Shown here: in pieces, positions 114 to 21,500 of the stretch
Layout: the number at the start of each line of letters is the position of its first letter
Numbering within the stretch: position 1 is the first letter of the stretch
From: Desulfosudaceae bacterium
GTDB lineage: Bacteria; Desulfobacterota; Desulfobacteria; Desulfobacterales; Desulfosudaceae
Length of the DNA: 64,000 nt
Reading direction: 5' to 3'
NCBI GenBank assembly: GCA_963674745.2
Contig: CAXXDV010000003.1
Location: 2,400,001 to 2,464,000, forward strand
Notes under the pieces: model-generated
What the model was told of the DNA's origin: nothing
The model's input: the letters and a program-made list of their open reading frames with translations, nothing else
The model's database searches: none
Made by a program: the position numbers and the translations under genes

Positions 114-230
114 CCGGTTTCTTTCTCTCCAGCATTCACTTACAATAAAATAACAAAATAAACGAAAAAACGTGCTTATTATAGGCGGTATGTATAACAA
201 GACTGCAATTGAAGTGTCAATAGGTTAATG

Positions 231-1321: not shown

Positions 1322-1441
1322 TAACTTACCCGGCTTAGCCAGCAAAATTCATATTGAATAATTATTTTCGGTTATGATATTCTTATAATTATCATTGAGA
1401 TCAAAGGGAGCAAAAATAAAAATTATAGGAGTCAGATAAAA

Positions 1442-1899: not shown

Positions 1900-1991
1900 C
1901 CACGACTTAAGACAACAAAGCCCGTACCCTACTTATTCCCCTACCACACAGGAAAAGAACAAATTTATAGGAAGGGCGCCCCCAAAACGTC

Positions 1992-2339: not shown

Positions 2340-2498
2340 GCTCCCCCCCATTCAAAACACTTTTACGTAATATGCAAAATCATAGCTGCTTTCGAAAAAT
2401 ATATGTGAACCGCTCTGGCAGGTTTATCGTTTAAAAAATTTTACGAAAAATCATAAGTGGCAGCAAAGCCATGGAATCATCAGGGGTTGAAAAACATC

Positions 2499-2524
2499 AA
2501 ATATAAAAATATAAAGGGCGTCCC
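2499..2524 (-). repeat. Copy of the RAYT end motif abutting a stop codon
   Basis: aaatataaaaatataaagggcgtccc, identical to 1296-1321, immediately beside the TAG of 2525..3193. Confidence 0.9.
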
Positions 2525-3193
2525 CTATTTGTCCATAGCCTCATTGGCCATACCCAATTTATTGTATAACAATATCAGGTTTTTACGTTTATCGTTGTTT
2601 TCAGGGTCTCTTTTTAAAACATCTTTGTAACACTCAATTGCCAACCCAATATTTCCCATTTTTTCGTATACAGAAGCCAGCACACCATAGCTATTCAAAT
2701 AATCGGGCTCAAATTGAATTGCTTGTTTCAAATGCGCTTCTGATTCTATAAGGTTACCGTTATTATAATAATAGGTTCCCAAGAAATAATGGGCCATTCC
2801 ATTCTTATTATCTAGCCTAATGCTAATCATTAACTCTTCAATTTGTAGTTTCTCTAAATCTTGCATTAAACTCAAATTATCACTAACTTCAACCTCCTTA
2901 TTGTTTTCATTCTTTCCTTTTGAGAAAAAATCATAGAGTTTCAATGCTCTGTTTTTATCGAAAAGCTCTAAATGCTTATAAAAATAAGCAAGGCTTAGAT
3001 TGTAATGAACGATAGCCACCTCAGGATTTATTGTAATTGCCTTTTCATAGACTTCTATCGCACGATCCCATAATCCCTGATGAACAAAATCATTCCCTTG
3101 ATTAAGTAATGCTTCGAACTCATCAGGTGCTGCGTTTAAGCTGGATAGGAAAAAAACAAAAAAGTATAGTATAAAAATACAAAATATTCTCAT
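2525..3193 (-). CDS. Exported TPR protein, putative partner/immunity of orphan CT 3265-3756
   Basis: Signal peptide MRIFCIFILYFFVFFLSSLNA, TPR helices (AIEVYEKAITINP; AHYFLGTYY); lies directly downstream of the orphan CT. Confidence 0.7.
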   Translation of the reverse strand: MRIFCIFILYFFVFFLSSLNAAPDEFEALLNQGNDFVHQGLWDRAIEVYEKAITINPEVAIVHYNLSLAYFYKHLELFDKNRALKLYDFFSKGKNENNKEVEVSDNLSLMQDLEKLQIEELMISIRLDNKNGMAHYFLGTYYYNNGNLIESEAHLKQAIQFEPDYLNSYGVLASVYEKMGNIGLAIECYKDVLKRDPENNDKRKNLILLYNKLGMANEAMDK

Positions 3194-3264
3194 TTCTTTA
3201 CCTCTTTTAAACTTGAAAGAATAACAGAATCCCAAGGATCCAAACAATTATTTAACTTCGTTTA

Positions 3265-3756
3265 TTACTCTAAAGTTAAAGGGTTACAACAATCTTTTCG
3301 ACCTTTAAGTGTTATTTTTTCACATGTTAAATGAGAGCTATGAATATTCTCTTCTCCAGCGGTAACTGTAACATCATGAGGAAATGGCCATGGATCATAA
3401 CAAATAGTTCCAGGTTTTAGAACCCCACATTCTATTTTTCTTTCTTCCTTATAAATTAAATCCATTGCTTCAGCAGAAGAACTTGTATCCGCAGAATACT
3501 TCGTGAAAAATATGATTATGTCAAGACCGTCACCAGGTTGAGCCGTTGGCGTAGAGTCAGCCAAGCCATTGAAATCTTTTGAATTATGTGGGTTATTAGA
3601 CACATATGCATAAGAATTAGTCTTTACTTTGATGACAGAATTAATAATTCTTTGTGTGTAGATCGGATCAACCCTCAGATACCTTCCAACACCCGCATTA
3701 TAGTATCTATGGTAATTATAATGCAACCCCGTCTCTTCATCATAGTATTGGCCCGG
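3265..3756 (-). pseudogene. Orphan Rhs core + C-terminal domain (cassette 1)
   Basis: Frame PGQYYDEETGLHYNYHRYY...RYLRVDP...DFNGL then a unique Cys-rich tail; in-frame TAA at 3796-3798 and no ATG upstream of PGQY. Confidence 0.85.
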
Positions 3757-4160
3757 ATATACTTTGATGCAGGTTACCTCCCGAAGACCTGTTTTTTACC
3801 CCCCTTGTTTTGTTGGTTGTTGGAAATAAAACTGTTCTTTATGGGTTAAAGGGAAAGGGGGTTAAAAGATGCAGAAGCGTATCCATTCTATATGGTCGTT
3901 GGGCAAAAAACCGTCACCCACCAACACAAACAAAACAATTTCTTCTTTTTATATCAAAAATATATCTTGAAATATAAAAATATAAAGGGCGTCCCTAAGT
4001 CCTATATCAGGCCCCGGAGTGGAAATTTGCTCAGAGTGCGTAGAGATCTGCAGTGAAATCGTTCAAGACCACAGGGAACCTAAACCGTAACATGTGGCTG
4101 TCGTGCAAGAAAACCGTCACCCACTAACACACAAGAAACGCATAAAAGCATAGACGTCCA
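3757..4160 (-). repeat. Cassette leader copy 1 (mosaic, includes RAYT end motif at 3970-3995 and second-type end at 4133-4159)
   Basis: Shares gacctgttttttaccccccttgttttgttgg, ggtcgttgggcaaaaaaccgtcaccca and aagaaacgcataaaagcatagacgtcc with the other leader copies. Confidence 0.85.
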
Positions 4161-5495
4161 CTATTCGTTCCCCAACTTGTTGGCTTGGTCCGACCCCGGT
4201 TCCGGTTGGTAATCTCGGACTGGCCAAACATATTGTTCCTCATTAATTTCGACTACATTGCTTTCCCCTCCAAACATCCTTACGGTCCATGCTTCCAATC
4301 TTATGCCTCCCCCATTTATTGGTTTTAAAAATCTAAAGGACGTGCTTGTCCAGTAACTGCCATCGGGTTCTAATAGAAATGGATCACCTGCTGACCATTT
4401 AGAGGTTCCAGATGTATCGGAAAGACAAGGTGAGTGATATGCCATGTTTCTCAAACTTTCCAGTTCAAAAAGATTCGGGAGCCTCCAATCCCCAGTTTTC
4501 GATTGATCTGTCAAGCCGCACTGACCGCTCTGAAGCGATTTACAAAAATCGACAGCTTCATTCCATGGAGCTGGCCCTGTTTCACCTTTTGCAGATCGAT
4601 AGTTGGCTCTTTTTAACCATACCAACCCTGTCAAATTATCAGTTACTGTGCCATTTGAGTTATCCGTAAACCGAGGAAACGGCAATCCCATGCCCTTCTT
4701 TTCATCCCCATCATCACCAGTTCTGTATTTGATTTTCTGCCCTGTCCGCTGAATGGATATAATTGAAGCGATATTGGATTCTTTATCACGAACAGGCCAA
4801 GCTAGACGATGAATACCTTTGTCGAGTGCATTTACGCTTCCTTTAGATATAAAAACATCCCAAGCGCAAGATGGGTCATGCGAACTTGTAGTGCTTGACC
4901 AATAGCCACCAGATAATAGAAAAAACGGATCGCCTTTTTGCCATTGAGAAGTTCCAGACGTATCGGAAAGACTAGGGTCGAGATATGCCATATCCCGCAA
5001 ACTCTCCAATTCAAAAAGATTCGGGAGCCTCCAATCCCCAGCTTTCGATTGATCTGTCAAGCCGCACTGATTGCTCTGAAGGGATTTACAAAAATCGACA
5101 GCCTCATTCCATGTCACCCGGCCTTTTTCACCTGTTGTAGATCGATAGTTAGCCTCTTTCAACCAAACCAACCCGGTTAAAATATCTGTAATGGTTCCAT
5201 TTGAATTGTCTGTAAATCGGGGGGAAGGCCATACAATACCTTTTTTTTCATCCCCATCATCACCAGTTCTGTATTTGATTTTCTGCCCTGTCCTTTGAAT
5301 GGATCTGATTAAAGCAACATTGGACTTCTTTTTAAGATTACTATCTAAAGATTGAATATTGACTGAGTATAGCTGTTTAGAGATTGCGAACCCCGTCAAA
5401 TCATTCCAGGCGGCCCAAATTACGATTGTTAAGGCAATAACCAACATAGATCTCTTTAACAAAAAAGAGAAAGCTTTTTGAAACATTTTCGACAA
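4161..5495 (-). CDS. Membrane-anchored tandem DUF1566 (Lcl C-terminal-like) protein, partner of orphan CT 5519-6175
   Basis: Two RFTDNSNGT..D.LTGLVW...DWRLPNLFELESL...YW.ST...WPVRD domains; 546-bp DNA repeat (4405-4762 vs 4951-5308); N-terminal TM. Confidence 0.85.
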   Translation of the reverse strand: MSKMFQKAFSFLLKRSMLVIALTIVIWAAWNDLTGFAISKQLYSVNIQSLDSNLKKKSNVALIRSIQRTGQKIKYRTGDDGDEKKGIVWPSPRFTDNSNGTITDILTGLVWLKEANYRSTTGEKGRVTWNEAVDFCKSLQSNQCGLTDQSKAGDWRLPNLFELESLRDMAYLDPSLSDTSGTSQWQKGDPFFLLSGGYWSSTTSSHDPSCAWDVFISKGSVNALDKGIHRLAWPVRDKESNIASIISIQRTGQKIKYRTGDDGDEKKGMGLPFPRFTDNSNGTVTDNLTGLVWLKRANYRSAKGETGPAPWNEAVDFCKSLQSGQCGLTDQSKTGDWRLPNLFELESLRNMAYHSPCLSDTSGTSKWSAGDPFLLEPDGSYWTSTSFRFLKPINGGGIRLEAWTVRMFGGESNVVEINEEQYVWPVRDYQPEPGSDQANKLGNE

Positions 5496-5518
5496 TTGAT
5501 TCTCTATGCTCCTGTTGT

Positions 5519-6175
5519 CTATTTACAAGATATATGTTCTTCTTCTCCACAATAGGGCGACAAAAATGTTTTCTGCATCCATTTACCACCACCCCCCATA
5601 CATTCAAATCTTACAGTTACCCCTTCATCTTTGCAACACCCTGTTTGGCAAATTGTATTGGCCTGCTTTATAGCTTTACCCCATAAATCCTCAGCCCCCT
5701 CACCTACATCAACCTCATTATTTGGAAGCTCTACATCTGGGATCGGGGTCTCTACGGTTGTATAGTGTTCCGCATTGCATCCATAGGAAGTGGCGGCAGA
5801 GCATGAATCATTATATACTGTCACGGGAATGTTCGATTGGTCTAACTTTACTTTATCGTCCTGGATTCCTGGATCAGCCACATCCAAGTTGCGGATTCCG
5901 TGACCAAAAAATATTATAACATTACATTTCTCAACCCTAATATAATGAGAACCATCGGCATTCTCATACACACCATATCCTTCACCTGTAGTGCCTTCGC
6001 CCAAAAATCCTGCAGGGTCACTAATGATATTGGGATTATTAAACGCATATAAAAAAAGATTAATCCCTCCATTAAACCCAATCGGATCAACCCGCAAATA
6101 CCTCCCCGTCTTCGGATCATAATACCGCCACATATTATAATGCAGCCCCGTCTCACTATCAAAGTACTGGCCCGG
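5519..6175 (-). pseudogene. Orphan Rhs core + C-terminal domain (cassette 2)
   Basis: PGQYFDSETGLHYNMWRYYDPKTGRYLRVDPIG...NNPNIISDPAGF then a unique Cys-containing tail. Confidence 0.85.
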
Positions 6176-6385
6176 ATATATTCTGATGCGCCTCCCCCCC
6201 GAAAGACCTGTTTTTTACCCCCCTTGTTTTGTTGGCCCCCGGATGAACTTCTTTTTAAAGATATGACAATTTACCATATGGTCGTTGGGCAAAAAAACCG
6301 TCACCCACTAACACACAAAAAAAAAGAAAACGATATAAAAAGAGGTGCTTAACATCGGATAAGTTAATAAGTTAAGGGCGTCTCC
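6176..6385 (-). repeat. Cassette leader copy 2
   Basis: Near-identical to 11408-11506 and 9813-9920; degenerate end motif aagggcgtctcc overlaps the stop region of 6372..7136. Confidence 0.85.
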
Positions 6386-7136
6386 TATTCGTCTCCTGTA
6401 ACTTTTTATTGATCAAATCAAAATATAGCTCGGGAACAGATTCACCTTGGTCCTTGGCTTTTGTTAAATAATTCAATGCTTCTTTATAATCCCCAACATG
6501 ATAAGAACAAACACCCAAATCAAATAAAAAAAAGCTTGAGGATTTACCCCACTTAATCAATTCTTTTAACTCATGCCTTGCATTGATGTAGTCATTATTT
6601 TTTTTATATATCTTTAATAACTTCTCACGCAATACGGTATCAGAAGGATTTATTAGTAAATATTTTTTACAAAATTCTTTTAACTCTTCCTGAGTCATAT
6701 TTGCTTTTAATGATTCTAAATCCTTTTTAGGAAATACGAACACTTCCGTATCACTTCTCATCGTTGAAAGCAACTCATATTGTTTTATACCCTCTGAAAC
6801 ACCTTTTGCCTTAAACACAGCATACATTAAATTATAGTTTAATAAATAGTTATTAGGTTCTATCTTTAGTCCCTCCTCATATATCTTAATAGCATTAACA
6901 AGATCTCCAAGTTTTCTTTCATACAGATTTCCTATTTTAATATATAAATCTATTTTCGTGGGTTTGTATTTTAATGCGTTATTATATTCAAATATTGCTT
7001 CTACAAACCTCTTTTCTTCTTCTAATCGACTTCCTTTCTCAATATACGTCCATTCATCTACATAAGTGTAAGCTTTAGTGCTCGACACAAAAAATACTAA
7101 ACACATTATACTCATTATTAAATATCGTTTTGTCAT
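6372..7136 (-). CDS. Exported TPR protein, partner of truncated cassette 3
   Basis: Signal peptide MTKRYLIMSIMCLVFFVSSTKA; TPR motifs AIKIYEEGLKIEP and LGVCSYHVGDYKEALNYL. Confidence 0.75.
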   Translation of the reverse strand: MTKRYLIMSIMCLVFFVSSTKAYTYVDEWTYIEKGSRLEEEKRFVEAIFEYNNALKYKPTKIDLYIKIGNLYERKLGDLVNAIKIYEEGLKIEPNNYLLNYNLMYAVFKAKGVSEGIKQYELLSTMRSDTEVFVFPKKDLESLKANMTQEELKEFCKKYLLINPSDTVLREKLLKIYKKNNDYINARHELKELIKWGKSSSFFLFDLGVCSYHVGDYKEALNYLTKAKDQGESVPELYFDLINKKLQETNRRRP

Positions 7137-7172
7137 GATAATCTCTCTTTAATAATTATTCTCGCCTTATCA

Positions 7173-7360
7173 TTAAAATGGTATATTATGCTCTTTTTTA
7201 TATTCTTCCGTCACAGGTGGCAATGGATCTAGCACAAGTGTTTCATACTTTTTTTCTGTATTGGCTGTTACAGGATATTCTGTCCCTTTAATTTTTGTGC
7301 ACGATTCTTGAGGCAAGGCAAGATGGCTCAAACATGTTTCCACCCAGCATTCGAATAAAG
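7173..7360 (-). pseudogene. 3' remnant of a probable orphan Rhs CT cut by IS66 (cassette 3)
   Basis: Open frame from the IS end: LFECWVETCLSHLALPQESCTKIKG...KKEHNIPF*, ending 36 bp before the TPR gene; position matches the other cassettes. Confidence 0.6.
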
Positions 7361-7386
7361 GTAAGCGTCAAGTTAACCCCACCCCA

Positions 7387-8979
7387 TCAGGTCGGGGAAC
7401 TCAGAGCGGCTGGATCGAGGTTTTGCGGCAGTAGTTTCTTGTATTCTTCCGGATCACCGTCGATCAGTGGAAGCTGCTCAAAGATATATCGCAAGTACGC
7501 ATAAGGTTCCAGCCCGTTCGCCTTGGCCGTTTCGATCAGGCTGAAGATGGCGGCGCTGGCGGCCGCACCCCGGGGATGCCCGGAAAATAACCAGTTCTTT
7601 CGTCCCAAAACAAAGGGCCGAATGGCGTTCTCCACCAGGTTGTTATCGGGTCGCAGACGTCCGTCCTGAACATAGCCGGTCAGCCGGTCCCATTGGTCCA
7701 GAGTGTAATTGATGGCTTTTCCCAGCAGTCCTTGAGGCGGTGTCTGTTGACTGCGTTTGTCCAGCCACTTTTTAAAAGATTCCAAGATTGGCAAGACCTC
7801 AGCCTGTCGAAGCTCGCGCCGTTGATCCGGGGAAAGTTCCGCTTTATCGGCTCGGCTTTCCACTTGGTACAGTTTGCCGATGAAACTCATGGCCTTTTCC
7901 GCGCTGCCGGGTTTCTGCGGCTTCCCTTTTTTTACCGGCTGACGGGCCTTAATCACTTCATGAAACTTACGGCGTGCGTGCGCCCAGCAGCCGATGTGAA
8001 TAATATTGGAGGCTTGCTCCAGGCTGTTATAACCTTTATAACCATCAGTCTGGATATAGCCCTCGTAGCCGTTTATGAAATTCTTAGGAACCTCTCCGGA
8101 TCGCGTGGGGTGATATTGATAGATCAGCGCCGGTTTATCCGGATCACCTCCGCGGAAAACCCACATATAGGATTTGCTGGTATTATTCCGGCCGGGCTCA
8201 TTCAAAACCTGAACCGTGGTTTCATCCATGCCGATCAATGGACCGGATCGGATCTCTTGGCATAGGCCGTCAATCAAGGGCTGACACCTTTTTGCCGCCT
8301 GAATGGTCCAGTTGGCCATGGTAGCCCGGGGAAGATCGACCCCGATCCGGGTAAACTGCTTTTCCTGGCGGTAAAACGGCAGGCTGTCGGCAAACTTGGC
8401 TGTCAGGATATGGGCTATCAGGCCCGGTGTGGCGATGCTTTGCGGAATAAGTTGCGGCGGTAGCGGCGCTGTCTTGACTGCTCCTTGTTCGGATTCTACG
8501 CCTTCACATTGTTTGCAAGCGTATTTGTATCGAATATGGCGAATAACCTGTACTTTGGCCGGAATAACATCCAGTTTCTCGGAAATGTCTTTGCCGATAC
8601 GGCTCATTTCACAGCCGCAGGCGCACATCTTTTCTTCTTCCGGAATATCGTGAATAACGTCTATGCGCGGCAGGTCATCAGGCAGGGGCTTGCGACCGCC
8701 TTTTTTCCTGGAATGCCCGGTAACCGCTATCTTTTCTTCTTTTTCGTCGGCATCTTCAGCAATATCCTCGGCCTCGTCAAACAGGGTCATCTGCTTGTCA
8801 TCGGTGTCAATTATGTGCTTTTCTGATTTTTTGCCGAACAGCTTGGCTCTTAGAAGACGATTCTGTTTTTCTAAATGCTCAATACGGGTATGCTGAAATT
8901 GAATCAATTCATTGTCTGACTGAATGACTTTATTGAGATCTTTTATGGTATTCTGAAGTTGTGCAGACTCACTGTTCAT
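7387..8979 (-). CDS. tnpC: IS66 DDE transposase TnpC
   Basis: Coiled coil, CACG...CKQC zinc finger, DETTVQV, QTDGYKGY, CWAHARRKF, DNNLVENAIRP, ETAKANGLEPYAYL. Confidence 0.95.
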   Translation of the reverse strand: MNSESAQLQNTIKDLNKVIQSDNELIQFQHTRIEHLEKQNRLLRAKLFGKKSEKHIIDTDDKQMTLFDEAEDIAEDADEKEEKIAVTGHSRKKGGRKPLPDDLPRIDVIHDIPEEEKMCACGCEMSRIGKDISEKLDVIPAKVQVIRHIRYKYACKQCEGVESEQGAVKTAPLPPQLIPQSIATPGLIAHILTAKFADSLPFYRQEKQFTRIGVDLPRATMANWTIQAAKRCQPLIDGLCQEIRSGPLIGMDETTVQVLNEPGRNNTSKSYMWVFRGGDPDKPALIYQYHPTRSGEVPKNFINGYEGYIQTDGYKGYNSLEQASNIIHIGCWAHARRKFHEVIKARQPVKKGKPQKPGSAEKAMSFIGKLYQVESRADKAELSPDQRRELRQAEVLPILESFKKWLDKRSQQTPPQGLLGKAINYTLDQWDRLTGYVQDGRLRPDNNLVENAIRPFVLGRKNWLFSGHPRGAAASAAIFSLIETAKANGLEPYAYLRYIFEQLPLIDGDPEEYKKLLPQNLDPAALSSPT

Positions 8980-9047
8980 AATGGTTTACATAACAAAACC
9001 ATCATGCAATGTCAAGCCTGTTTTATGATTATGTAGTAATTTTTTAC

Positions 9048-9401
9048 TTAAATGACTGTGGAATATTGAAGCCTATCATGTCCCCGAACCTGGGTAATCT
9101 CAAGTCCGTCCAGCAACCACCCCAAACGCCGGGAACCGATCTCCATAACCTCATCATACGACTCTGGCCAGCGAAATTTTTCTTTCTCCAGACGCTTGTG
9201 CCATAGACAAAAACCGTTCCGATGCCAGTATAATATTTTGAGGATCGTTCGACGCCGATTGCAAAAAACAAATAAATGGCCGGAAAACGGGTCAAGTTCA
9301 ATCTGGCCTTCCACCATAATGGACAGGCCATTGATGGATTTTCTCATATCCGTATGACCCATCACCAGAAAAGCCCGCGTTTGGCTGGGAAAGAACATCA
9401 T
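9048..9401 (-). CDS. tnpB: IS66 accessory protein TnpB
   Basis: TDMRKSINGL...LFVFCNRRR..LKILYW..NGFCLWHKRLEKEKFRWP. Confidence 0.95.
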   Translation of the reverse strand: MMFFPSQTRAFLVMGHTDMRKSINGLSIMVEGQIELDPFSGHLFVFCNRRRTILKILYWHRNGFCLWHKRLEKEKFRWPESYDEVMEIGSRRLGWLLDGLEITQVRGHDRLQYSTVI

Positions 9402-9727
9402 CGCCGGTCCACTACTTCCAGAACCTGCTCCAGAACCAACGGCTGAAATCCTTCGGATACTTCTATCCGGTATCGGTTATTAACGACCAGGCTTAACGGT
9501 GCGGACGGCATGGCTTGCGGCAAGGAAATCGGAACCAGGGAGACATCTGATGAAACCGGTTGTTCGAACTTTTTCTTCCAGTACACAAATTGCCATTTAG
9601 ACAAATTGTTTTTTCGCTGATATTCCGTCTGGCTCAGGCCACTGGCCCGCCACATCTGAATATGCCGTTCCCAGAACCGTCGTTTCTCCGCTCGTTCCTG
9701 TTCGCGGTTAATTTTCTTGTTTTTCAT
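9398..9727 (-). CDS. tnpA: IS66 accessory protein TnpA
   Basis: W..HIQMWRASGLSQTEY...QFVYWKKK HTH; ATGA-type overlap with tnpB. Confidence 0.9.
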   Translation of the reverse strand: MKNKKINREQERAEKRRFWERHIQMWRASGLSQTEYQRKNNLSKWQFVYWKKKFEQPVSSDVSLVPISLPQAMPSAPLSLVVNNRYRIEVSEGFQPLVLEQVLEVVDRR

Positions 9728-9812
9728 AATAGCGCCTTTCCGAATTAAATTTTTGGCGCTATCTTGACACGGTCCGCCCGGCTTGTGAAGATGGGGTTAA
9801 TTTGACGCTTAC

Positions 9813-9962
9813 TTTTTTTTACCCCCCTTGTTTTGTTGGCCCCCGGATGAACTCTTTTCTCAAGATATGATAGTTTACCTTAGGGTCGTTGGGCAAAAAA
9901 ACCGTCACCCACTAACACACAAAGAAACCGAAGAAACGCATAAAAGCATAGACGTCCCCATT
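9813..9962 (-). repeat. Cassette leader copy 3 (truncated by IS66)
   Basis: ttttttaccccccttgttttgttggcccccggatgaact...ggtcgttgggcaaaaaaaccgtcacccactaacacac...cataaaagcatagacgtcccc. Confidence 0.9.
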
Positions 9963-9969
9963 AGTCTTC

Positions 9970-10758
9970 CTATTTCTCCCCTAAATATTTCTGAGGCATT
10001 TCGTTAATATCCTTCCTAACGATTTCAATATTAAGGGGCAAAGCAGGCACTTTTATGCTGGACAATGACTTTAGTAAATCCTCTTTTAACTCACGTAATT
10101 TATTATATCTTGATAGGCTAACATTAAATAACAGCTTAGCTTCATCGTTACTATATATATCCGCTGAAGCATAATAATACCTCTTTCTTTCCATTTTATA
10201 TATCATGCAAGTAGCTTTGAGCGACTTAGAATCGATAATATACATACCAATTAATTTACCCACATTAAGGCTCATAAACTTAAAATGCTGATAGGTCCAT
10301 GCCTGTTTATTTTTATTTCTTGCATTAAAGATAGAGATATCGCTTGGGACCGATTTCAGAATCGCCGCTTTTTCTCGGAAGGAAGAGAAACTTATTGAGC
10401 CCCCGCCTTCAATTGTGTCTATCGATTCTTTTTTAGATCCGGTATATGAGACTATGAATGCACCTTTTTCAGAAAAGAAATAAACGCGATCCCCCTCACT
10501 AAATACTTTTTTATATTCCAACTTCGGAACTTTAAAGAAAAATCCGCCAATGTTTAACTCATTCCATTCTTCAGACGTTACGTTTACAGCACTCACACAG
10601 ATTGGAGTTACGCTTAATTGTTCATTTATGTAATCACCAAGCGTTCTCTTGACATGCCAGTTATATTGTAAAACAGGGAAAAAATACCAGATAGAGGCAG
10701 TCAATACGATAGATAGCACCAATGAGAGGCTGATGAACTTTTGATGTTTTATTTCCAT
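9970..10758 (-). CDS. Membrane-anchored hypothetical protein, partner of orphan CT 10832-11407
   Basis: 262-aa AT-rich ORF with an N-terminal TM, directly downstream of the CT. Confidence 0.65.
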   Translation of the reverse strand: MEIKHQKFISLSLVLSIVLTASIWYFFPVLQYNWHVKRTLGDYINEQLSVTPICVSAVNVTSEEWNELNIGGFFFKVPKLEYKKVFSEGDRVYFFSEKGAFIVSYTGSKKESIDTIEGGGSISFSSFREKAAILKSVPSDISIFNARNKNKQAWTYQHFKFMSLNVGKLIGMYIIDSKSLKATCMIYKMERKRYYYASADIYSNDEAKLLFNVSLSRYNKLRELKEDLLKSLSSIKVPALPLNIEIVRKDINEMPQKYLGEK

Positions 10759-10831
10759 AGGATTATTAGCCTAAAATACAACAATACATTTATTGCAAAA
10801 CCGTGACGCAAAATAATGTTATTGCCTTGTT

Positions 10832-11407
10832 TTATTCACAACCAAAAGATTTATATAACTCTTGCGGGAATTCAAAACCCTTTCCTGCTTGGCATTCTGA
10901 CAAAGATTTAACACATTTTTCTCGACATCCTTGTTCATCAAAAGGCGCACTATTATCTAAATAAGCGTAACAACTTCCTTTTGCATTTCTACAGTTCTCG
11001 TTGCATGTTTGTTCAGCAATCATACATGTTGAGGAACGAGACCAAGGCACCTTTGATCCCGCCTTGCAAGCCTTCTCCTGTATTCTCATACTATTACATT
11101 CAGGTGCTTCAGGCACTTCGGACTCCGATGAGTCTTCCTCCTCTTTTTGTTCCTCAAGCCATGGTAAATACTCTAGTTCATATTCAGGTGGCATTAGACA
11201 AGAGGCCCCCCCATTTGCAGTCGGCACACATGTATCTAACCCTAATTGATCAAAGTATCGATTGGGATTATTTAACGCATATAAAAACAAATTAACACCA
11301 CTTGTTAACCCTATCGGATCAACCCTCAGATACCTCCCCGTCTCCGGATCATAGTACCGCCACATATTATAATGCAGCCCCATCTCCTCATCGTAGTATT
11401 GGCCCGG
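10832..11407 (-). pseudogene. Orphan Rhs core + Cys-rich C-terminal domain (cassette 4)
   Basis: PGQYYDEEMGLHYNMWRYYDPETGRYLRVDPIG...NNPNRYFDQLGL then a Cys-rich tail. Confidence 0.85.
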
Positions 11408-11908
11408 ATATATTCTGATGCGAGTCCCCCATAAAGACCTGTTTTTTACCCCCCTTGTTTTGTTGGCCCCCGGATGAACTTCTTTTTAAAGATATGACAA
11501 TTTACCTTTCAAATCAAATGGTCTGTGGCAGTTAAAAAAGAAAACAAATCGGGTGAAAGCGGCTCCAGTATGCCGGAGATGATCTGCTGCCATTTTCTGG
11601 GCAGGCCGGTGTAGATGGTTTTCAGCCGTTTACGACGAGCTTCGTATTCCAGGCAAATATTTTGTACGGCAGGACTCGAAGCCACGGCGGAACAAACATC
11701 ACAACCACCTTACCCGCACGGCTACAGGCGAGGTCGGCCGGCAGAATGGGTGCGCTTCAGGGGGCGTTTTTTTGACCATAAGATTGATCTGCTTCCTTAT
11801 GGTCGTTGGGCAAAAAAACCGTCACCCACTAACACACAAAGAAACCGAAGAAACGCATAAAAAGATAAACGTCCCCATTATCCCTTTGCAAATGTAAAAG
11901 GCGTCCCC
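11408..11908 (-). repeat. Cassette leader copy 4 with a 290-bp insertion
   Basis: Same leader blocks; extra DNA between CCTT at 11505-11508 and CCTT at 11795-11798; end motifs at 11849-11876 and 11890-11908. Confidence 0.85.
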
Positions 11909-11920
11909 AACTTTACAACT

Positions 11921-12265
11921 TTACGTTGGACTAAGTAATCCCATTAAAGAAACAGCAATAAGTAAAATAACTACCACGGCTCTAACATAAGCTCCCATAT
12001 TCTTAAAAAGAACAAAAGGGGGTAGCCATAACCATATTTTTGAATTTATCCCGTCACCAATCATTAACCATAAAGCTAATACAATGCAGAACATCATTTC
12101 AAAAACGTCAAAACAATGCGACTCATAAACCCCTAATAAGAGAATATGTTTATCACGCACAAACCAGTACGAAACAATACAGATTGTAGGATATAAAATG
12201 AAGATTAACATCATTACCACAACCAATGCTTCTAAAGTTGTAGATAAGGCAAGACTCTTTTTCAT
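11921..12265 (-). CDS. Small multi-TM protein, probable cognate partner/immunity of full-length Rhs
   Basis: 114 aa with about 3 hydrophobic segments; first listed ORF downstream of the Rhs gene. Confidence 0.6.
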   Translation of the reverse strand: MKKSLALSTTLEALVVVMMLIFILYPTICIVSYWFVRDKHILLLGVYESHCFDVFEMMFCIVLALWLMIGDGINSKIWLWLPPFVLFKNMGAYVRAVVVILLIAVSLMGLLSPT

Positions 12266-12586
12266 TGTTTAGAGGTACTCCGCTATTAGTGTCCAATTAA
12301 CCTATTCATAAGTCGTATAAATTTTTCTAAGCAAAAGGATGTGCTTCACGAAATCAATATTTAACAATCGACGTCTGTGACACAGTGTTAGAAACGCGAT
12401 AACTTCAAATCTAGATCGCAATAACCGTTAACATCTGGTTGCCATTACCAAAACAGATTACAATAAAAGTTAATCTTCAAAACAATTTGGCATTAAAGAA
12501 ATACCTATTTTACAAACATTCACAAATCACACTTACAAAAGGAAAATTAATAATGGCCCCATCGTTTAAATTTATCCGCATCTGCT

Positions 12587-15500
12587 CTATGAATAATTCG
12601 TGCCCTCTTTAAGCGACCAATGGCCGGTTGTCGTCATAGCGCCAAGATCAAGCCCTTTACTCCATCCTTTGAATCTTAAATAAGCTTGCGGGGTGTTGAC
12701 CCAGAGATGGCCATAACTCGAGCGGACACCTACCCCCCAAGAAGTTGCTCGTCCAAAACCAACGTGCTCCTTTAAAGAGATACAAGGCGTATCAAACCAC
12801 TGACCATCTCCAGATACAATAAAAGTTGGTACATTCTTAAATGAAAAGCCTATCCCTATTCCTACATATTGATAATCACTTCCCTGTATACAACATCTCT
12901 CTGGGTCTGCACGGAGCTCAGCATTAATTACCACACCGCCTGTTTCAATCGTAGCGCCGATAACAGAAACGATAGTCAGCCGCCATCTATCACAGTAACC
13001 GGCTTCACATAGGCCTAAAGAATCAATATTATTTATACTATTATTTGAGGCATAGGCAAAAATACTACTTCCTTTATCCGAATCAACCGGATCAACCCTC
13101 AAATACCTCCCCGTCTCCGGATCATAGTACCGCCACATATTATAATGCAGCCCCGTCTCCTCATCGTAGTATTGGCCCGGGAACCTCAGGTTGTTCTCAA
13201 CCGTATCAACCTCAACCGTTGCCTCCCCAAAGCTACTGTACTTCGCACTCCAGACCACAGCCCCGTTACTTGATGTCAGCTTCTGCGGTGTACCCAAGTG
13301 ATCATTGTGGTAGAAGAAGTAAGTACCACTTTCTCTCATGAACAAAGGATCGGTTCCCCAGGTGCCACCCGGCTGCCAGCCGTAGGTTTTATCCACATTA
13401 CCGTAAGAATCAATTTCAGCTACCAGACCTTCATCACTGTAATGATAGTAAGTCGTGGTACTTCCGACGGTCTTGCTTAATCTTCTGCCAAAGGGATCGT
13501 AATAATAACTGGCAATCAAATTATTCGAGTCGTCTCTGACTTCAGTAAGCCGGTCTTCTACATTGTAGACGTAATTTGTGACAACTCCAGCAACCGTCTT
13601 TTTGATGGTGTTGCCGTTGTCGTCGTACTCGTAAACAGCGTCCCCGGTTGAGTCGGAGGATGACTGAAGTTCGTTGTTGAAATTATAATCCCAATCACTG
13701 GTGCTATCCTCTGTGGTCAAGCGGTTGCCCACGTTATCGTAAGTAAACTCCTCGTCAGTCAGACCGGCGGCTTCGGGGTTGTCAACATCCGTCAACCGGT
13801 GCAGGGCATCATATTCATACCCATAATCCCCGTGCTCGGTGGCTTTGGAAGTGATGTTGTCCATTGTGTCATAGGTGTAGTCATAATTCAACAGGTCGTT
13901 TCCGCCCGGATCTTTGCCGATGATCTGTTTTATCCGCATCAAGGGATCATATTCAAAGGCCCTGGCACCGCCGCCGGGCAGGGTAAAGCCGGCCGGCCGG
14001 TTCCAGTTATAGCCGTTGACGGTCAAAAATCCAATGCCGGCGGGCATCTGAACCCCGGCCAGGCGATTGGCCGTATCATACATGTAGGTGTAAGTGACGT
14101 TGTCCGGGCCGGTAAAGGTTTTTTTAAGGCCGTTTTTTAGATGGGTGTAAGTATTGGTCCAGCTATAAGAGCCGTAAGTAACGGTCTCGCTGGTCTTTCG
14201 GCCGGCGTTGTCGTAGACATACACAGCAGATGTCGTACCGTCATTGTAACCGTCGAGATTACCCGCATCATCATAGGTGAAGCTGACGGTCTTGACCAGG
14301 GTGAGCGATGCGTCATAATAACGGGTTTCATCCAACTGGCCGGCATTATTATAGTCATATTCGGTTTTCTGGTCTTTGGCATCGATCTTTTCGATCAGGT
14401 TGCCCATCAAGTCATAATCATAAGTCGTTATTTCACCTTCGGGCCGGGTCTCTTTAGCCAGCCGGTTGTTGCCGTCATATGCAAACGCGGTGGTATTGCC
14501 CTGGGCATCGGTCAAAGAAGTCATATTATCGCGGTTGTCATAGGCATATGCCGTCTGCCCCTGGTTTGGATCCGTTACCCGGACCAGCCGGTTCAAGGCA
14601 TCGTATTCATAATACGTGATCTGGTTATCTTTGTCTGTTTTTTCGATCAGGTTGCCGGCCGGATCGTATACAAACCGGGTTTCTAAAGTTTCCCCCTCGG
14701 GAACAATCACCTGCTCGGCGATTTTTCTATTGCGTTCGTCATAGACAAAGGCTTTTTCAAAAGTGGGATAAGTGACGCTGATGGGTTGGTCGGCCGTGCC
14801 GCCACACGATGTACAGCCGCCTTCCGAGCTGACGGGATCATACTCGGTGACGATTTCATTGCCGGCAGGATCGATGGTTTTAACCCTTCGGCCGCGAGAA
14901 TCGTAGGCATATTCTGTGATAGCGCCCTCAGAATCAATCATCTTCACCAGTTTGTTGTCAAAGCCGTATTCAAAGGTGGTAATAATATCTTTTGAAGCGT
15001 CGGCCGGGTCCATGACCACGGTCTGCTTGATCATGTTGCCGAGCATATCATATTCAAACAGGGTTTCGGTTAAATCCGGGGCGATCTGCTTTGTCTTTCT
15101 CCCGCCAAAATCATACTCATACCGGGTAACTTTGTGTTCGGGATCTTCGGCGGTAAGCAAATTACCCATAGCATCATACGTATATGTCCAGACCAGGTCA
15201 TCACCATCAGGGTTTTCAACGGTTTTGGTCAGCACATTACCCATGATGTCATGGATAAAACGGGTGGTGACCGCCTCTCCTTCGGCATCGGTGGTGATGG
15301 AAGTCTGGTTGCCGTCGGGATCATAGGTCATGGTGGTAACAATATCAGACGTGCCCAGGATACGGGTTTCAATCAGGTGGCCGTTATTGTAAACGTATTG
15401 GGTGGTCCGCTCTTCGGTTGTGCCCACGGCCTCGGTTTTGCTGGCCCGGTTGCCCTGACTGTCATAGGTATACGCGGTAACAATACCGTTTTCATCAGTC

Positions 15501-18500
15501 TCCCTGATCAACCGGTTCAAGTCGCGCTCATATTGACGGGTGATAAAGGAACCGTCCGGGTACACTTCTTTGATCCGGTTGCCCCATTCATCCTCATACC
15601 GGGTGGTGGTATGGCCGTTCTGGATAATCCGGGTGATGCGGCCCTCTTTTTCCACTCTGAACTGGGTTTCACCGTTGATATCCACCCGCCGGGTATCACC
15701 GTCGGCGTCAAACCAGGATTCCTTGATCTGACCGGAGGTATCGGAAACAGAAGCGTAATATTCTTTTCTGTCTTCAAAATAGTTATAGCCGAATTGTTTG
15801 CTCTCACCATTGATATCGGTAACCGATTTGACCATATTAAAATCGTTGTAGGTGATGGTGTAGGTGGGATCGTCTGTGGCTATATTGATTTGCTTGTTGG
15901 CCGGCAGCCAGACGTTTGTCAGCTTGCCTTCGGCATCATAACCATAGCCGTAAATCATCCGGCTTTCACCTGTATCGCTGACAGAAACAACGGTCTCCAG
16001 CCATCCCTCAGGGGTATAGGTATAGAGCACTTCCCGGTCATAATCGTCCGAAATCCGGATAATCCGGCCGGCCGTGTCATGGTCCAGCCACAGATACTGC
16101 TGGTTGTTTTTATCGGCCAATCCGGCCAGGTAATCACCATTATAAATCAGGTGACGCTGGGGCCCCTTGGCGTCTCCCACCTCGGTCAGACGGCCCTGTT
16201 CGTCGTAAATTTTGTAATCTCCGAACCGGCTCTGCCAGACGAACGTGCCGTCCATCTGCTGGATGATTTTAAAGCTGTTGTTGGTAAACATGGCCAGTGT
16301 GCCGGGGACGACGACGGAACTTTTTTCATATTTAATACCGTCTTTATCGATACTGTCGACCAGCTCGCCGGCATATTCGAGTTCCAGGTCGTACCTGGAC
16401 AGGCCCCAGTCCCATTTTTTGTCGCTGTATTTCCGGGTCAGCTTGAACAGACCGCCGGGCACCTGGATTGACAGGTCAGTATCGTCCCGGTTGTAGGTCT
16501 GGTTCAGCAAATCGACCCCGGAGCCGGTGATGACAAAACGGTGCTTTCTGGTAAAGTCCATTTTCTTGATACAGGACTCGCCGTCCGGATCGGAGCAATT
16601 GGCCGGCGGCGCGCACAGGGCCGCAGTATCCCCGTCGGGCATCAGTTCGTCCATAAACTCCTCAAAATCCTGCTCGATCAATTCCTTGGCTTTATCGAGG
16701 CCCGGGGGATTGTCCGTCGGGACAATCACACAGGTCTGAGTGGCGGGATCGTATTCGACACACACATCCCACTCGGCACAGGATTCAAAACTGGCTTCGG
16801 TTACAACCCCGTTGGCGCATTCAAAGGTATAATCACCTTCTCCACAGATCTTGTTGTGCGCGCAGCACTGTTTCCCGCCAGTACCATCCTGCCCTTCATC
16901 CGCGCCCGGTTTCATGAGGCAGGTAATGCGATAGGGCACCGTAACAACCTGATGGGGCAGAATGCTTTCGGGCACGCCGATGTATTCGACCTGAAAATAT
17001 TTATTACTGACATCGTTCAGACCGACTTCGTCCGCCCGGATCAGGCCGTGGTTGGTCAGGGTTATTTCACCGTTCATGACATCGCCCGTATTCATGTCGT
17101 CGGGGATGTTGATGACGGCCGGGTCGGCCACGACAACCGCGGCCGGGACATTTGTCTCGAAAGTGGCGTTATAAATAATCTCGTATTTGTCGGCAATGGT
17201 GGTTTCCACGACTTCCCACTCAACCGTGACCAGCTGATTGGGGAGAAACACCTCATGTGCCCGGGTGATGCCGGGTTTTACCCAGACCCGGCCGGCCAGC
17301 TCCTGATGGTTATCAGACCTGACCCGGTAGCGGTAACTGCCGACCGGCAGTTCCTGGGACATGGCTTCGCCCTGGGCATCGGTGGTCAGGGTCTCGTCAT
17401 CCCCGGTAGCCTCATTCTGCAGCAGGATTCTGGCATTGGCCAGGCCGTAAATCGGCTCGTTATATTCATCCAGGGTACCGGTATAGATATCGCTGACATG
17501 AAACAGCACCCGCCCGGTAACATCCGTGGTAACGGTAACGCTGAAGGGGACTTTCACGGTCGCATGGTTCAAGCTGGTGATTTTAAGATAAAAAGAAAGT
17601 ATGTCAGGCGTAAAATCGGCGGGCGGGGACAAAACAATGTCTACCTTTGACGTGTCGCCCGGGGCGATGGCGCTGATCTGGGTGGACGAGGCAATATAGA
17701 TCCACTCGGGCGCCTGGCTGCCGACAGCATCTGTATTGATCACGGACAGGATAAGCCCCTCCATGTCGGCATAGCCTTTGTTCTCCAGCGTGACGGATTC
17801 GGTGGCCGTGGAACCCGCATTGAGGCCCGCCTGGATAAAGTCGGGTGTCACCCACAGGGACGGCCGGGAATCGACCAGAGAAAGTTCAACATCCAGGGTG
17901 GTCCAGCCACCGGCGGGGCTTTCGTCGCTGACCAGGCGCAGGGTAAACTCAACATCGGCAGGGCTGTCGCCTTCAACCGTAAAAGAGACCTGGCCCGATT
18001 CATCCGAAATGGTGATGGGATCGCCGCAGATCACGGTTACGCCGGACGGGAGGGTACCATCGACCTCAAACCGCAGGTTGGTGGCGGTGGTAGCGCTGCC
18101 GGCAGTGGCCGCAATGGTCACGGTATGTCCATTCCCCCTGGGGACGGTCAGTTTATAGGAAGAATACTGCAGGTTGACCCGGCTGATGACAAAGGTGTCC
18201 TGCACGGGCCGTTCGGTCAGGTCGGGATGAACGGCGCAGACCTGAAAGGTACCGGCATCGCCGGTGGTGGGCGTAAACAGGTATTCAAAAAGACCGTTAT
18301 CATCGGTATATACCTCGGCCGTCCGTTCAAACCCGTTATTGGAAATCACCACGGTCAGGGGAACGCCGGACAAAAGGACGGGATTGGCCTCGGTTCCCCG
18401 CTCCACGGCCCGGCCGGAGATGGTGATGTCCGTGTCGCCGGTGGCGTTTGCCGGTGTCACCGAGGTGACTTCGCCGATATATGAGGTTTCCGTCAGGGTC

Positions 18501-21500
18501 ACGGGTTTGGACGTACGCATTTCGCCCATGATGACCTGGTCGTCCCGGTTGAGGTGAAAGTATATATGGGCGATGGACAGTATTGCTGTCAGGTTATCCG
18601 GGACGTTGGCCGTCACGGGCAGAACGATGGGATCGGACTCGAATGTCTCGCCCGGGGGTATGCGGACCACGCTGGTGCCGTCGGTCAGGGTGACCACCAT
18701 GGAACCGGTGGCGCATTGGAAATTCTGTGTCGCGACGGGAAGGCCGTCTTCATCTTCCAGGGTGAGGACGATTTCGTCGGAGGGATCGTCACCGGAATTG
18801 CGGGCGCTGACGATTTCGATTTCCTCGGCGCAGGTGTTTTCCAGGCTGAACCTGGCCGCACCTTCGCCACCGCGGGTAAAGGTTTCCGTGGTCAGGCGCA
18901 GGCCCAGCAGACCGTCGCCCACGTCAATCCGGCCGTTTCGGACAATCCGGATGGTTTCATTGTCATCTTCGGTAATTTCGATGGTGGTGGTGATTTCAGC
19001 CAGATCGGGCAAATTTTCATAACCACCGATAATAACGGCAACATCCCTGCTTTCCCCGGCTGCAAGCGAGATCGGAAGAGACTGATGGGATTTTACCGTG
19101 ACGTCGTCATTCAACACGACATCGACCTTAAGCCTGATATTATCGATATCGCCGCCGGAATGGTTACTGACCGTGTAGTTCAGCCCGTTCATGATACCGC
19201 GATCGATCCGGGCGCTTTCTGCCATAGCGGCGGTCACCAGCGGCAGGGTGATGACACGGTCCAGGCTCTCGACCCCGGAGGCGTTCTCCGTCGTCACGGT
19301 ATAGGTACGCTGGTCTTCAGCATAACCCGTATCGGTATAGGTATTGGTGGTAATCAGGGCAGCGTTGAGCGGCTGTTTGTTCGGTTCTTCGCCCAGGTAG
19401 ATATTACACCCGGCAATGGTTCCGGTGGTGGTCCAGGTAATAACCGGATCGGACAGGTCTTCCTGGACGATGTCGATCGAGGTGACCGGCAGCAGGCCGG
19501 GATCCAGGTATTCGTTATTGGACGGTGTGGACAAATTGCCGGCCGCGTCCACGGCCACGATCACGTAGTTGTGCTCGGTCAAGGAGGGGTTGGGATCGAT
19601 GATCGAATTCATGTTCAACGGGATCCCCTGCCTCACAGGTTGCAGGCCCGTGACCGAGGATATTTCGCCGGCGGCCCTGTAAAGAGAGAACGTCACCTGA
19701 TCGGTACCGGTAAAACTCCAGTCGACCTGGATCCCGTTTGGCGTCAGGGTCAATGGCAACAGTGTGGGCTGAACCGGGATGACGGAATCCGAGTTGACGC
19801 TTTGCGCCAGAATTCGCTGATCACTTTCTCCGGTCTCCTCGTTTTCCGTTCTGAGGCTGGTAACGGCATAGTAATAATCTCCGTCCGTGCCGGGCTGGTC
19901 CGTATAGGTCGTTATTCCCGAAGCGACTTCATCAATCTCTGCCAGCGAACCGGTTGTTGTACCCCGATAAATCCTGTAGCCGGAAGCATTTTCCACCGCG
20001 TCCCAGGTAAGTTCAATTTGACCGGCGGGCAGAGCGGTTGCGTTCAGACCGTCGGGCCTTTCCAGCGCCGGCAGGTCGCCCTGATAGACCTCAAAGGCGT
20101 TATCCGCGATGATGATATCTCCGACATTACCCAGGGCGTCAATTCCCGCAAAAGAAAAGAACAGGTCTTCATAATCGGCTGATACCGCCAGTGCCGGCAG
20201 GGTAAACGTTACCTGCCAGGTCTGGACATCGTCCGACTGGGGGGGAACGATTTCATCCGGAACATTCGTCGGGTAAAACGTTTCCGGGGCACCGGAAAGC
20301 GCCCATTCGAATACCGGATAATCGTCTTCACCGCTTTGCGCGACCGGTTCATCCAGACCAAAAACAGCCGTAATCATCACGGGATTGTTGTTATCAATCG
20401 GTACCGCCGGGAACACATCCAGCCGGACCACTTCCGGCCCACGGGCATCGACCAGGATCGACTGATATTCTGTCGGCACGTAGGTGCCGCGGTTGCCGAC
20501 CTTGTCCCGGGCGGAAAATACAGCATAGGTTTCCCCTGAGATTGTACCCGGTTCGATAATAAAATAACCGGTATATTCCGTGTCTGACAATTTGGTCAGG
20601 TCAACCGGTATGAGCACACCGCCGTCAGGCACCATGCTGAAAAACGGCGTGGTCAGAAGGGGTTCACTGACCACCAGCGTCACGTCCACCCGGCCGGGGC
20701 CGAAGGCGCCGTTGTCGGGGTTAACCGGTCCCTGGGGCGTATAGGTTATTTCGAGTGCCTCCGGATCGGTGTCATCGGTTTGAACTTCCACCTGGTTGGA
20801 CAGGGCGCTTTTCGTACCCAGGCTGTTGACGGACGTAATCCGGTAATAATAAAGGCCTTCGTCCGGTGTATCGAGAAACTGAAGAGTGGTCACCGGCACC
20901 GCGTTAACCTTGATTGTTCCGCTGATTGCGTCAAACGGCGCGGTATGGCGGTAAACATTATACCCGGACAGATCACTGGCAGCGCAATTCCAGGTCAAGC
21001 GGGCTTTTCCGTCTTCAAGTGGCGTGGCGGTCAAATGCATGGGCGCGTCCGGGATATCCGTATTCAGAATGACGCTTATGGTATTGCTGTCAACACTCTG
21101 GCCGGCGCGATTGGCCGCCCTGGCTTTGACATTATTTGTTCCTTCGACAGGAAGAGTGGCATTGCCGGAAAAATTGCCGGTCGCCCCGGTTATGGCGGTT
21201 TCCTGCTGGGCAGTGCCGTTGACGTAAAAGGTTATGGTCGAAAGGGGCTCGGCAGTTCCCTTGACGGTTACAACACTCTGGTTGGTGGCATACCCATTAG
21301 ACGGGCTGGTGAATACGGGCGCGTCTGGCGCCGGCAGCGCGACGACAAAATTATAATCCGTAGTCGCTGTGTTGCCGATGGTGTCGTAAACCGTCACCTC
21401 CAGGGTATATGTTTTGTTTTCGATATCTGGGGCCAGCAGGTCAATATTACAGGTATAGACCGATGAATAATCCGTGGCCTGAACAACGGTTGCACTGCCG

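Follow-up and report, generated by a model that had tools for sequence, protein, structure and literature searches.

A candidate mobile element with a dif-like site inside the rhs toxin genes of Desulfobacterales

The window analyzed in this work is a stretch of 64,000 nucleotides (nt) from a Desulfosudaceae bacterium (GenBank assembly GCA_963674745.2, contig CAXXDV010000003.1). It corresponds to positions C3:2400001-2464000 of this genome, which is hereafter denoted G000 (5.55 Mb, three contigs). The window harbors a full-length rhs gene followed by orphan tips, which lack a start codon and begin with a conserved piece of the rhs core (the stub). Each intact orphan is joined to a non-coding leader at the same nucleotide. 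The explanation that we favor, with a probability of about 0.75, is that an element carrying its own recombinases integrates site-specifically, and in frame, at the PGQY(Y/F)D codons of rhs genes. Judging from the sequence comparisons reported below, the leader is probably the right end of this integrative mobile element, which is found in Desulfobacterales. The argument is built on the anatomy of the element, its synteny between genomes, the symmetry of its site and the boundaries of the mobile unit.

The junction and the leaders

The motif CCGGGCCA(A/G)TA was found four times in the window, always on the minus strand (13180, 11407, 6175 and 3756) and never on the plus strand. At 13180, it is preceded by core codons (...ctgaggttc; ...ENNLRF) and lies inside the rhs gene of 4,454 amino acids (aa); at the three other positions, it follows ...gcatca(g/a)a(a/g)tatat. 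The join corresponds to the boundary between the F and P codons in RF|PGQY(Y/F)DxETGLHYN and, as it falls between two codons, an insertion at this point would be in frame. The three orphan tips of 191, 218 and 163 aa are preceded by in-frame stop codons located 26, 13 and 13 codons upstream of the junction, respectively, and no ATG, GTG or TTG codon is present between these stops and the junction.

A six-frame search of G000 with the motif detected 11 stubs, two in full-length genes and nine in orphans. The second full-length rhs gene is carried by C1 (junction 1407998, plus strand) and the six further orphans are located on the minus strand of the same contig (1412827 to 1422287). The first-pass annotation had claimed that the three intact orphans of the window join a shared leader at one nucleotide; this was confirmed, and the same leader join was observed in all nine G000 orphans (three in the window, six on C1). 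In one of the C1 orphans, the last codon of the leader is TAG. Each downstream tip in these two arrays is made of a core fragment and a distinct C-terminal domain and is followed by a small gene. Past the conserved stub region of about 60 aa, all 11 tips of G000 differ from one another.

In other genomes, the 12 readable leader-type junctions (11 that were tabulated and one at a contig start, G003:C183, showing only 7 nt of the stub) were all found at the identical nucleotide, which brings the count to 21 out of 21 when G000 is included. As these 21 copies are homologous, they point to a shared ancestry or mechanism and not to 21 independent events. No homologous leader was found to join rhs anywhere else; in one copy, the leader is followed by non-rhs DNA, again from the identical point. 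Relatives also contain ragged orphans which keep 2 to 173 core codons and form a separate, leaderless class.

The four leaders of the window have in common a stretch of about 55 nt (...CCAACAAAACAAGGGG...). This stretch runs up to the junction in the three intact leaders, and leader 2 is cut inside it by an IS66-family insertion sequence. Leaders 1 to 3 share about 95 nt. Farther upstream, at least three variants are combined in mosaic fashion around a repeat that we call module A. The earlier description of one and the same leader of 150-200 bp is thus valid for leaders 1 to 3, while leader 4 (before 3756) is different upstream. Leader 1 is composite: its positions 98-278 match the left inner part of an intact element in G002, a genome of the same genus, in the region that directly follows the immunity gene, and its positions 393-528 match the right end of the same element. 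The leader was therefore concluded not to be rhs debris, and the composition of leader 1, a left inner part joined to a right end, was taken as support for the integration of an element.

When the leader DNA was compared with 201 genomes of the order, convincing matches were obtained only in G000, G002 and G006; the eight remaining matches were 20-36 nt long (E >= 0.003). Within the family, the leader was recognizable in 4 of the 13 species genomes. An exact 19-nt leader pattern gave 23 single matches in public genome contigs, in records titled as unrelated taxa (a collection from which the records of the window itself may be missing), and a gapped 28-nt pattern gave no match in public metagenome contigs.

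Module A is an 80-nt repeat which is found after the stop codon of immunity-type genes and is often followed by two long hairpins. It was also observed after two open reading frames (ORFs) without family matches, downstream of paralogues of the recombinase trio described below. Copies in the window are located at 11795-11880, 9878-9963, 6274-6359, 4088-4141 and 3905-3938, and other copies in G000 at C3:45506, 2578349, 2707554 and 2716841, at C2:130803 and at C1:1409783.

The element, its site and its boundaries

Directly upstream of the first orphan of the C1 array, three co-oriented genes precede the leader, which starts about 200 nt past the last stop codon of this trio and extends to the join. 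The first gene encodes a primase-helicase-like protein of 849 aa (Pfam DNAG_N and Toprim; Walker A motif recognized by eye). The two others encode tyrosine recombinases of 331 and 308 aa (Pfam Phage_integrase for both). In both recombinases, the pattern R..K..HxxR..H..Y, which we take to be the catalytic motif of tyrosine recombinases, was matched by eye. Their best NCBIfam matches were XerC/XerD models, with 228-274 bits, below the cut-offs of 279-371. They scored far below the cut-offs of the integron integrase models, with 109.3 and 132.9 bits against 265 for TIGR02249, and with 66 and 70 bits against 435 for NF011946.

The same order, trio then leader then stub, was found in eight other genomes. 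The amino acid identity of the last recombinase of the trio with the 308-aa protein of G000 is 84% in G002 (contig C13), 80% in G006 (C36), 79% in G003 (two contigs) and 58% in G158, a member of a different family within the order. Desulfospira, Desulfobacula, a Desulfobacteraceae genome and Desulfogranum (61-67%) were added when public genomes were queried with the 308-aa protein. From this synteny, the complete element probably consists, in order, of a start-less rhs stub (PGQY(Y/F)D...DPxGL) with its tip, an immunity gene, an inner region with module A and hairpins, the primase-helicase-like gene, the two recombinase genes and the leader.

The trio is more widespread than its association with rhs. 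The 308-aa recombinase was detected at E <= 1e-60 in 9 of the 201 sampled genomes of the order, and in a tree of 23 recombinase copies, the backbone of which is unresolved, the rhs-linked copies fall in at least four lineages. G000 itself contains two tandem trio paralogues at C3:2707400-2720852 (recombinase 58% identical), the contig ending inside the second one. Each of them is followed by two ORFs without family matches, module A and hairpins, with no rhs stub present.

At the leader junctions, the site consists of a 12-nt arm, a 6-bp centre CCGGG(C/A) and a second 12-nt arm which corresponds to the QY(Y/F)D codons. The consensus of the left arm is ATCAGAATATAT and the join is located at the left edge of the centre. 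Twenty junctions were tabulated (nine from G000 and eleven from eight other genomes, one of them cut by a contig end), and all of them read 12 nt, CCGGG(C/A), CA(A/G)TA(C/T)...GA(T/C). Over these 20 junctions, the left arm matched the inverted right arm at 7.65 of 12 positions on average when the two were in register, against 1.4-3.95 when they were slid by 1-12 nt. The best inverted repeats (10/12) were those of C1:1414451, C1:1422287 and Desulfogranum. For eight core-type left arms, taken from full genes and ragged orphans, the mean was 3.4/12. The leaders of G158 and Desulfogranum are no longer recognizable, except for a short ACAGCTCT block in one Desulfogranum copy, yet the 12-nt arm and its position are kept there, as is the arm in copy L119. 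The centre and the right arm are present in every rhs gene of the clade, because they encode a conserved motif.

In the window, where all sites are on the minus strand, the full-length gene contains a recombination-type site of the attL/attB type at 13163..13192 (AACCTGAGGTTC / CCGGGC / CAATACTACGAT, PGQYYD; 5/12). The dif-like site of orphan 1 is located at 11390..11419 (ATCAGAATATAT / CCGGGC / CAATACTACGAT; 7/12), that of orphan 3 at 6158..6187 (ATCAGAATATAT / CCGGGC / CAGTACTTTGAT; 7/12) and that of orphan 4 at 3739..3768 (ATCAAAGTATAT / CCGGGC / CAATACTATGAT; 9/12, hairpin z = -2.7). A folded single-strand site of the attC type was also considered and was dropped: folding six junctions as DNA gave z values of +1.44, +0.40, -2.66, -5.16, -1.59 and +0.48, with no conserved fold among them. 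As single strands, the commonest forms of the site fold no better than shuffled sequences; the junction is therefore read as a putative duplex binding site of the dif type and not as a hairpin of the integron type.

Tandem arrays cannot tell whether the tip located before the leader or the tip located after it belongs to the element. This question was settled by a Desulfobacula contig on which two copies of 7,524 bp (14228-21751 and 3121-10644) share 99.987% identity. The match opens at the first nucleotide of an upstream stub and closes 3 nt past the leader (...GTATAT|CCG). Both copies have the same stub and tip, and all four flanks differ: past the leader, an rhs stub follows one copy and an unrelated long open frame follows the other. 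From these boundaries, the unit is made of the stub, the tip, the immunity gene, the inner region, the trio and the leader. Both ends of the unit are at the same point of the site, the repeat ending within the first 3 nt of the centre.

At L115:8597-11719, on the Desulfobacula contig, CTGATTC|CCG is where an element copy meets the beginning of an unrelated open frame, which is at least 794 aa long. The copy seems to have been inserted into a pseudo-site similar to the rhs target's left arm. It had also been considered that a divergent leader forms the left flank of Desulfobacula copy B; this was dropped, because the flank looks more like a pseudo-target, CTGATTC|CCG, at the opening of the large unrelated frame.

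Mechanism and alternative explanations

The following scheme is proposed. In the circular form of the element, the attachment site would span the joint between the leader and the stub. Recombination at the CCGGG(C/A) centre would insert the element in frame into an rhs gene, so that the host rhs core would then read into the tip brought by the element. The old tip, from CCGGGC exactly, would end up downstream, behind the leader. By repeated insertion, tips would be stacked one behind the other, and the loss of the 6-kb backbone would leave a short cassette with the stub, the tip, the immunity gene, module A and the leader. Catalysis by the two recombinases, the positions of cleavage and a present mobility of the window cassettes are inferred from the sequence.

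The layouts of two relatives fit the nested order that is predicted by repeated insertion. In G002, the rhs core is followed by tip a, an immunity gene, module A, the trio and the leader, then by tip b with its immunity gene, and finally by a leaderless ragged orphan that keeps more of the core. In G158, an rhs-like gene continues into tip 1 (M23 peptidase domain), two ORFs, the trio, cargo and the leader; tip 2 (DUF5675) comes next with an ORF, a partial trio and a leader, and precedes tip 3. On C1 of G000, which does not directly match this order, the trio is followed by six leader/tip cassettes on one strand. In the window, after the core, the succession of tip, immunity gene, module A and leader is repeated four times and ends in tip 4 and a tetratricopeptide repeat (TPR) gene. 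The window cassettes are read as decayed derivatives of such elements whose backbone would have been deleted. The absence of module A after the TPR gene of tip 4 fits four backbone-deleted elements stacked before the original tip.

Two origins had been left open by the first-pass annotation for the junction, a fixed recombination site and a join formed once and reused by every cassette. The fixed site is now the better supported of the two. First, the same nucleotide is used by lineages whose leaders have little in common outside their last 12 nt (G158 and Desulfogranum). Second, the junction directly borders the 6-bp centre of a dif-like inverted repeat. Third, the leader sits downstream of two Xer-like recombinase genes. 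Finally, two near-identical copies of the element are bounded by that point on both sides.

Under the once-formed alternative, the joint arose by accident and was then spread by duplication, gene conversion and homologous recombination, the inverted repeat being functionless and the recombinases serving another site. It would account for the homology of all leaders, as right ends of a single element family, and for their presence in cassettes with unrelated tips. Homology arms on either side of the tip/immunity pairs could be provided by the stub, of about 100 nt, and by module A, of about 80 nt, and homologous displacement clearly occurs too, given the ragged orphans. Nevertheless, the identical Desulfobacula copies start and end at the joint within four different flanks, and since one of these flanks is non-rhs DNA, no homology is available there. 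Furthermore, even in lineages whose leaders are otherwise unrecognizable, the last 12 nt persist and remain in register with the inverted right arm. For these reasons, a single accidental origin is considered unlikely.

The tip that follows the leader could also be cargo of an element composed of module A, the trio, the leader, the stub, the tip and the immunity gene, which would enter downstream of rhs operons through some other site. This proposal agrees equally well with the tandem arrays and with the layouts of G002, G158 and Desulfospira. However, the Desulfobacula repeat includes the upstream stub and tip and stops 3 nt after the leader, and the sequences after the leader are wholly different in the two copies, which makes such a downstream entry very improbable.

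Another explanation, to which we give equally little credence, is that the leader is an expression signal (promoter, 5' untranslated region or structured RNA) for tips that stand alone. Conserved non-coding DNA is indeed found directly upstream of each tip, with G-rich runs that resemble Shine-Dalgarno sequences and, in some leaders, an out-of-frame ATG. On the other hand, the reading frames of the tips are closed by stop codons 13-26 codons upstream without any start codon, and one leader ends in TAG. The structured RNA or promoter that had been suggested in the leader did not find support either. The Rfam scan of window positions 1-14000 gave no match up to E = 0.1, and that of five loci with module A gave one chance match (an internal ribosome entry site model, 21 bits against a cut-off of 40). 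RNAalifold predicted no pairs over 15 leaders. Promoter-like sites were in no excess, 18 being observed for 24.5 expected; only one of them lies in any leader (leader 2) and none is shared.

With regard to these signals, the out-of-frame ATG (cttt-ATG-ggg) is present in several leaders (window 11433-11390 and equivalents), where it would open a short frame across the junction, of 13 codons by visual reading; in other leaders, CGG is found in its place. The best sigma-70-like match of the region (6134-6162, minus strand; TTGATA, 17 nt, TATAAT; 11/12) is located inside the stub of orphan 3, and its second hexamer falls on the conserved HYN codons.

Finally, the leader could be a decayed piece of rhs core coding sequence, as might be suggested by a near copy of the junction in three leaders of the window (ATCCGGGGGCCAA, with the GTTC of the core before it). 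However, the leader gave no alignment to the core, BLAST matched it to element DNA located downstream of the recombinase genes in G002 and on C1 of G000, and leader 4 and the leaders of other genera lack the near copy, so that this idea can practically be set aside. The near copy that had been noted in the window is real in leaders 1 to 3 (11475, 9848 and 6244, minus strand), about 66 nt upstream of the join; it is a feature of one leader variant of this genus only, and could represent either an accessory site or what is left of an older one.

Several observations weigh against site-specific integration of an element. As all leaders are homologous, the number of independent events is far below 21. 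In the full-length genes, the left arm is a poor inverted repeat (1-5/12). Nine related copies of the trio have no rhs stub in the flanks examined: the two tandem paralogues at the C3 end of G000, three copies in G086, one each in G073, G085 and G027, and Desulfobacula copy B. No open gene upstream is fused to either of the Desulfobacula copies, one of the two lies in non-rhs DNA, and the contig comes from a metagenome bin, for which a mis-assembly is possible. On C1 of G000, the trio abuts pyruvate:ferredoxin oxidoreductase genes and the orphan array is inverted with respect to the rhs gene of this contig (C1:1400003-1427124). The canonical order therefore needs one assumed inversion, and a single inversion of approximately C1:1408700-1427140 would restore it.

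In addition, no recombination product, neither a circle nor an empty site, was seen. The three sequencing runs that contain this DNA consist of contigs only, and the joints present in them are either short on one side or show the letters by which the C1 paralogue differs, so that these runs are uninformative on excision. For a comparison of occupied and empty sites, the tips that flank the G002 element have no orthologues in the 13 genomes of the family, and the G002 flank is syntenic with another part of C3 in G000.

Since every window cassette keeps a complete site, the intact recombinase pair of the second locus could act on it. A further step is more tentative, and we consider it possible but doubtful. 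The two arrays would then form a working toxin-switching platform, in which the Xer-like pair of C1 would excise in trans single cassettes or runs of cassettes from both arrays as circles and re-insert them in frame at the PGQYYD codons of either rhs gene. If this were true, a single cell line could alternate between 11 or more toxin tips and hand individual tips on to its neighbors, and the whole would be an integron-like system whose 'promoter' is a delivery protein of 4,000 residues.

The rhs locus of the window and known systems

All the features of the rhs locus described here are on the minus strand. The full-length rhs gene (12587..25951; 4454 aa) was identified by its ORF and by matches to RHS_repeat, RHS (Pfam) and TIGR03696. 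Its last 637 aa match RHS_repeat (5e-24) and RHS (7.7e-17), and its last 197 aa match TIGR03696 with 66 bits, against a cut-off of 32.5. The tip that it now expresses occupies 12587-13180 and is followed by a small hydrophobic ORF without family match (11921..12265), which is a putative immunity gene. Directly upstream of the rhs gene, a giant ORF of 3815 aa and an ORF of 274 aa are present (26051-38335).

Leader 1, the long form (11408..11920), was delineated by alignment and contains module A (11795-11880), a remnant of the left inner region and the right end of the element (approximately 11408-11540). It precedes orphan tip 1 (10832..11407; 191 aa), which consists of the stub PGQYYDEEMGLHYN... 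and a unique C-terminal domain, as judged from its reading frame and from tip comparison; the next ORF (9970..10758), without family match, is a putative immunity gene. The alignment places leader 2 at 9812..9969, cut ahead of its junction by the IS66-family insertion sequence (7361..9811), which has three ORFs and was recognized from Pfam matches and from its ends. No 8-bp target duplication borders this insertion sequence and its far flank is not leader sequence; it was therefore deduced that an adjacent deletion took away the junction and most of the tip. An open frame that ends before the TPR gene, recognized by eye (7173..7360), is probably the 3' remnant of this disrupted tip, and the TPR-repeat ORF (6372..7136; Pfam) is the putative immunity gene of the disrupted cassette. 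A further copy of the same IS66 element breaks a module A element at C3:45.6 kb.

In leader 3 (6176..6371), module A is joined straight to the right end of the element, according to the alignment. Orphan tip 3 (5519..6175; 218 aa; reading frame and tip comparison) is followed by an ORF with an Lcl_C domain (4161..5495; Pfam), possibly an immunity gene. Leader 4 (3757..4160) aligns as two module A copies, the other upstream variant and the common last 55 nt or so. Orphan tip 4 (3265..3756; 163 aa; same criteria as tip 3) is probably the oldest tip of the array, and its TPR-repeat ORF (2525..3247; Pfam) is again a putative immunity gene. The cassettes have a guanine plus cytosine (G+C) content of 30-45%, against 52.5% for the rhs core and 50% for the genome. 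At the far end of the orphan array, positions 241-1263 encode an IS200-like Y1 transposase domain fused to a DnaA-type helix-turn-helix; this protein matches the REP-associated tyrosine transposase model below its cut-off.

Among known systems, phages and islands integrate at the 3' ends of genes (tRNA genes, or icd for e14 and phage 21), where they supply a substitute end and leave the original one behind as a fragment. The proposed element is similar in that its site overlaps the end of a gene, a substitute end is brought and the old one is left behind. However, the classical integrators restore the same product, whereas here integration would change it, the substitute end being another toxin domain that comes with its own immunity gene.

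The Xer/dif system, the elements that integrate at dif and the pdif modules of Acinetobacter plasmids rely on a XerC/XerD pair and on sites with arms of about 11-12 nt around a 6-bp centre. The 12-6-12 site and the modules bounded by sites are common features, and the two recombinases resemble XerC and XerD in their best matches. In contrast to Xer/dif, the element brings its own pair, the recombinases score below the XerC and XerD equivalog cut-offs and the target is an rhs coding motif instead of a dimer-resolution site.

In integrons, a tyrosine recombinase is associated with promoter-less cassettes which each end in a site and are expressed at one privileged position, from the Pc promoter. 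The C1 array of G000 likewise has recombinases beside an array of promoter-less cassettes, each with a site. It differs by integrase scores far below the cut-off and by the lack of a conserved folded hairpin, and expression would come from an in-frame fusion to the host gene and not from a Pc promoter.

Integrase-like genes recur beside Rhs loci of the bee-gut bacteria Snodgrassella and Gilliamella, and might help to capture toxin sequences (Steele et al. 2017, PMC5727410). In the part of that article devoted to these loci, no site, junction or element structure is given and the role of the genes is left open. A full-text literature search, with most subscription journals outside its coverage, did not find any description of an element that integrates into rhs at a defined site.

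In Bacteroidales, the portions of the rAID-1 work that bear on these arrays describe a XerD-family tyrosine recombinase heading a co-oriented, low-G+C array of orphan immunity genes, which is linked to interbacterial toxins and has integron-like repeats; membership is defined by a recombinase more than 44% identical to the rAID recombinase of B. fragilis, and biogenesis is stated to be open (10.1101/471110, PMC12247911). The C1 array of G000 is alike in outline, with co-oriented low-G+C genes after the recombinase genes and repeated intergenic motifs. As far as these portions go, rAID arrays consist of immunity genes only, with one recombinase and in another phylum. Here, two recombinases and a replication-type gene are accompanied by complete toxin tips, and the site lies inside the toxin coding sequence.

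Since 2009, the acquisition of tips by Rhs and other polymorphic toxins and the pile-up of old tips have been explained by homologous recombination via an unseen circular intermediate. The present locus offers a testable alternative in which site, enzymes and mobile unit are all specified. In it, a self-replicating integrative element would use a conserved coding motif of a toxin gene for its attachment, and its integration would by itself swap the toxin domain in frame. If this is true, the replacement of a protein domain joins the known deeds of site-specific mobile elements. The sections of Jackson et al. (2009, PMC2935791) that deal with displaced tips describe a full-length rhs gene followed by tips that each retain a core piece, a toxin domain and an immunity gene. 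[quoted passage not shown] Compared with this model as set out in those sections, the strings of orphan tips behind a full-length rhs gene, as well as the displacement of the old tip by an insertion, are the same, and ragged orphans of the classical type are also found in the relatives. Core fragments of variable length were not encountered among the leader-type junctions, where 9 of 9 in G000 and 12 of 12 elsewhere are at one nucleotide. Unlike in the 2009 model, the core fragment starts here at one exact nucleotide, the tips are accompanied by a pair of recombinases, and the join is located in a dif-like site.

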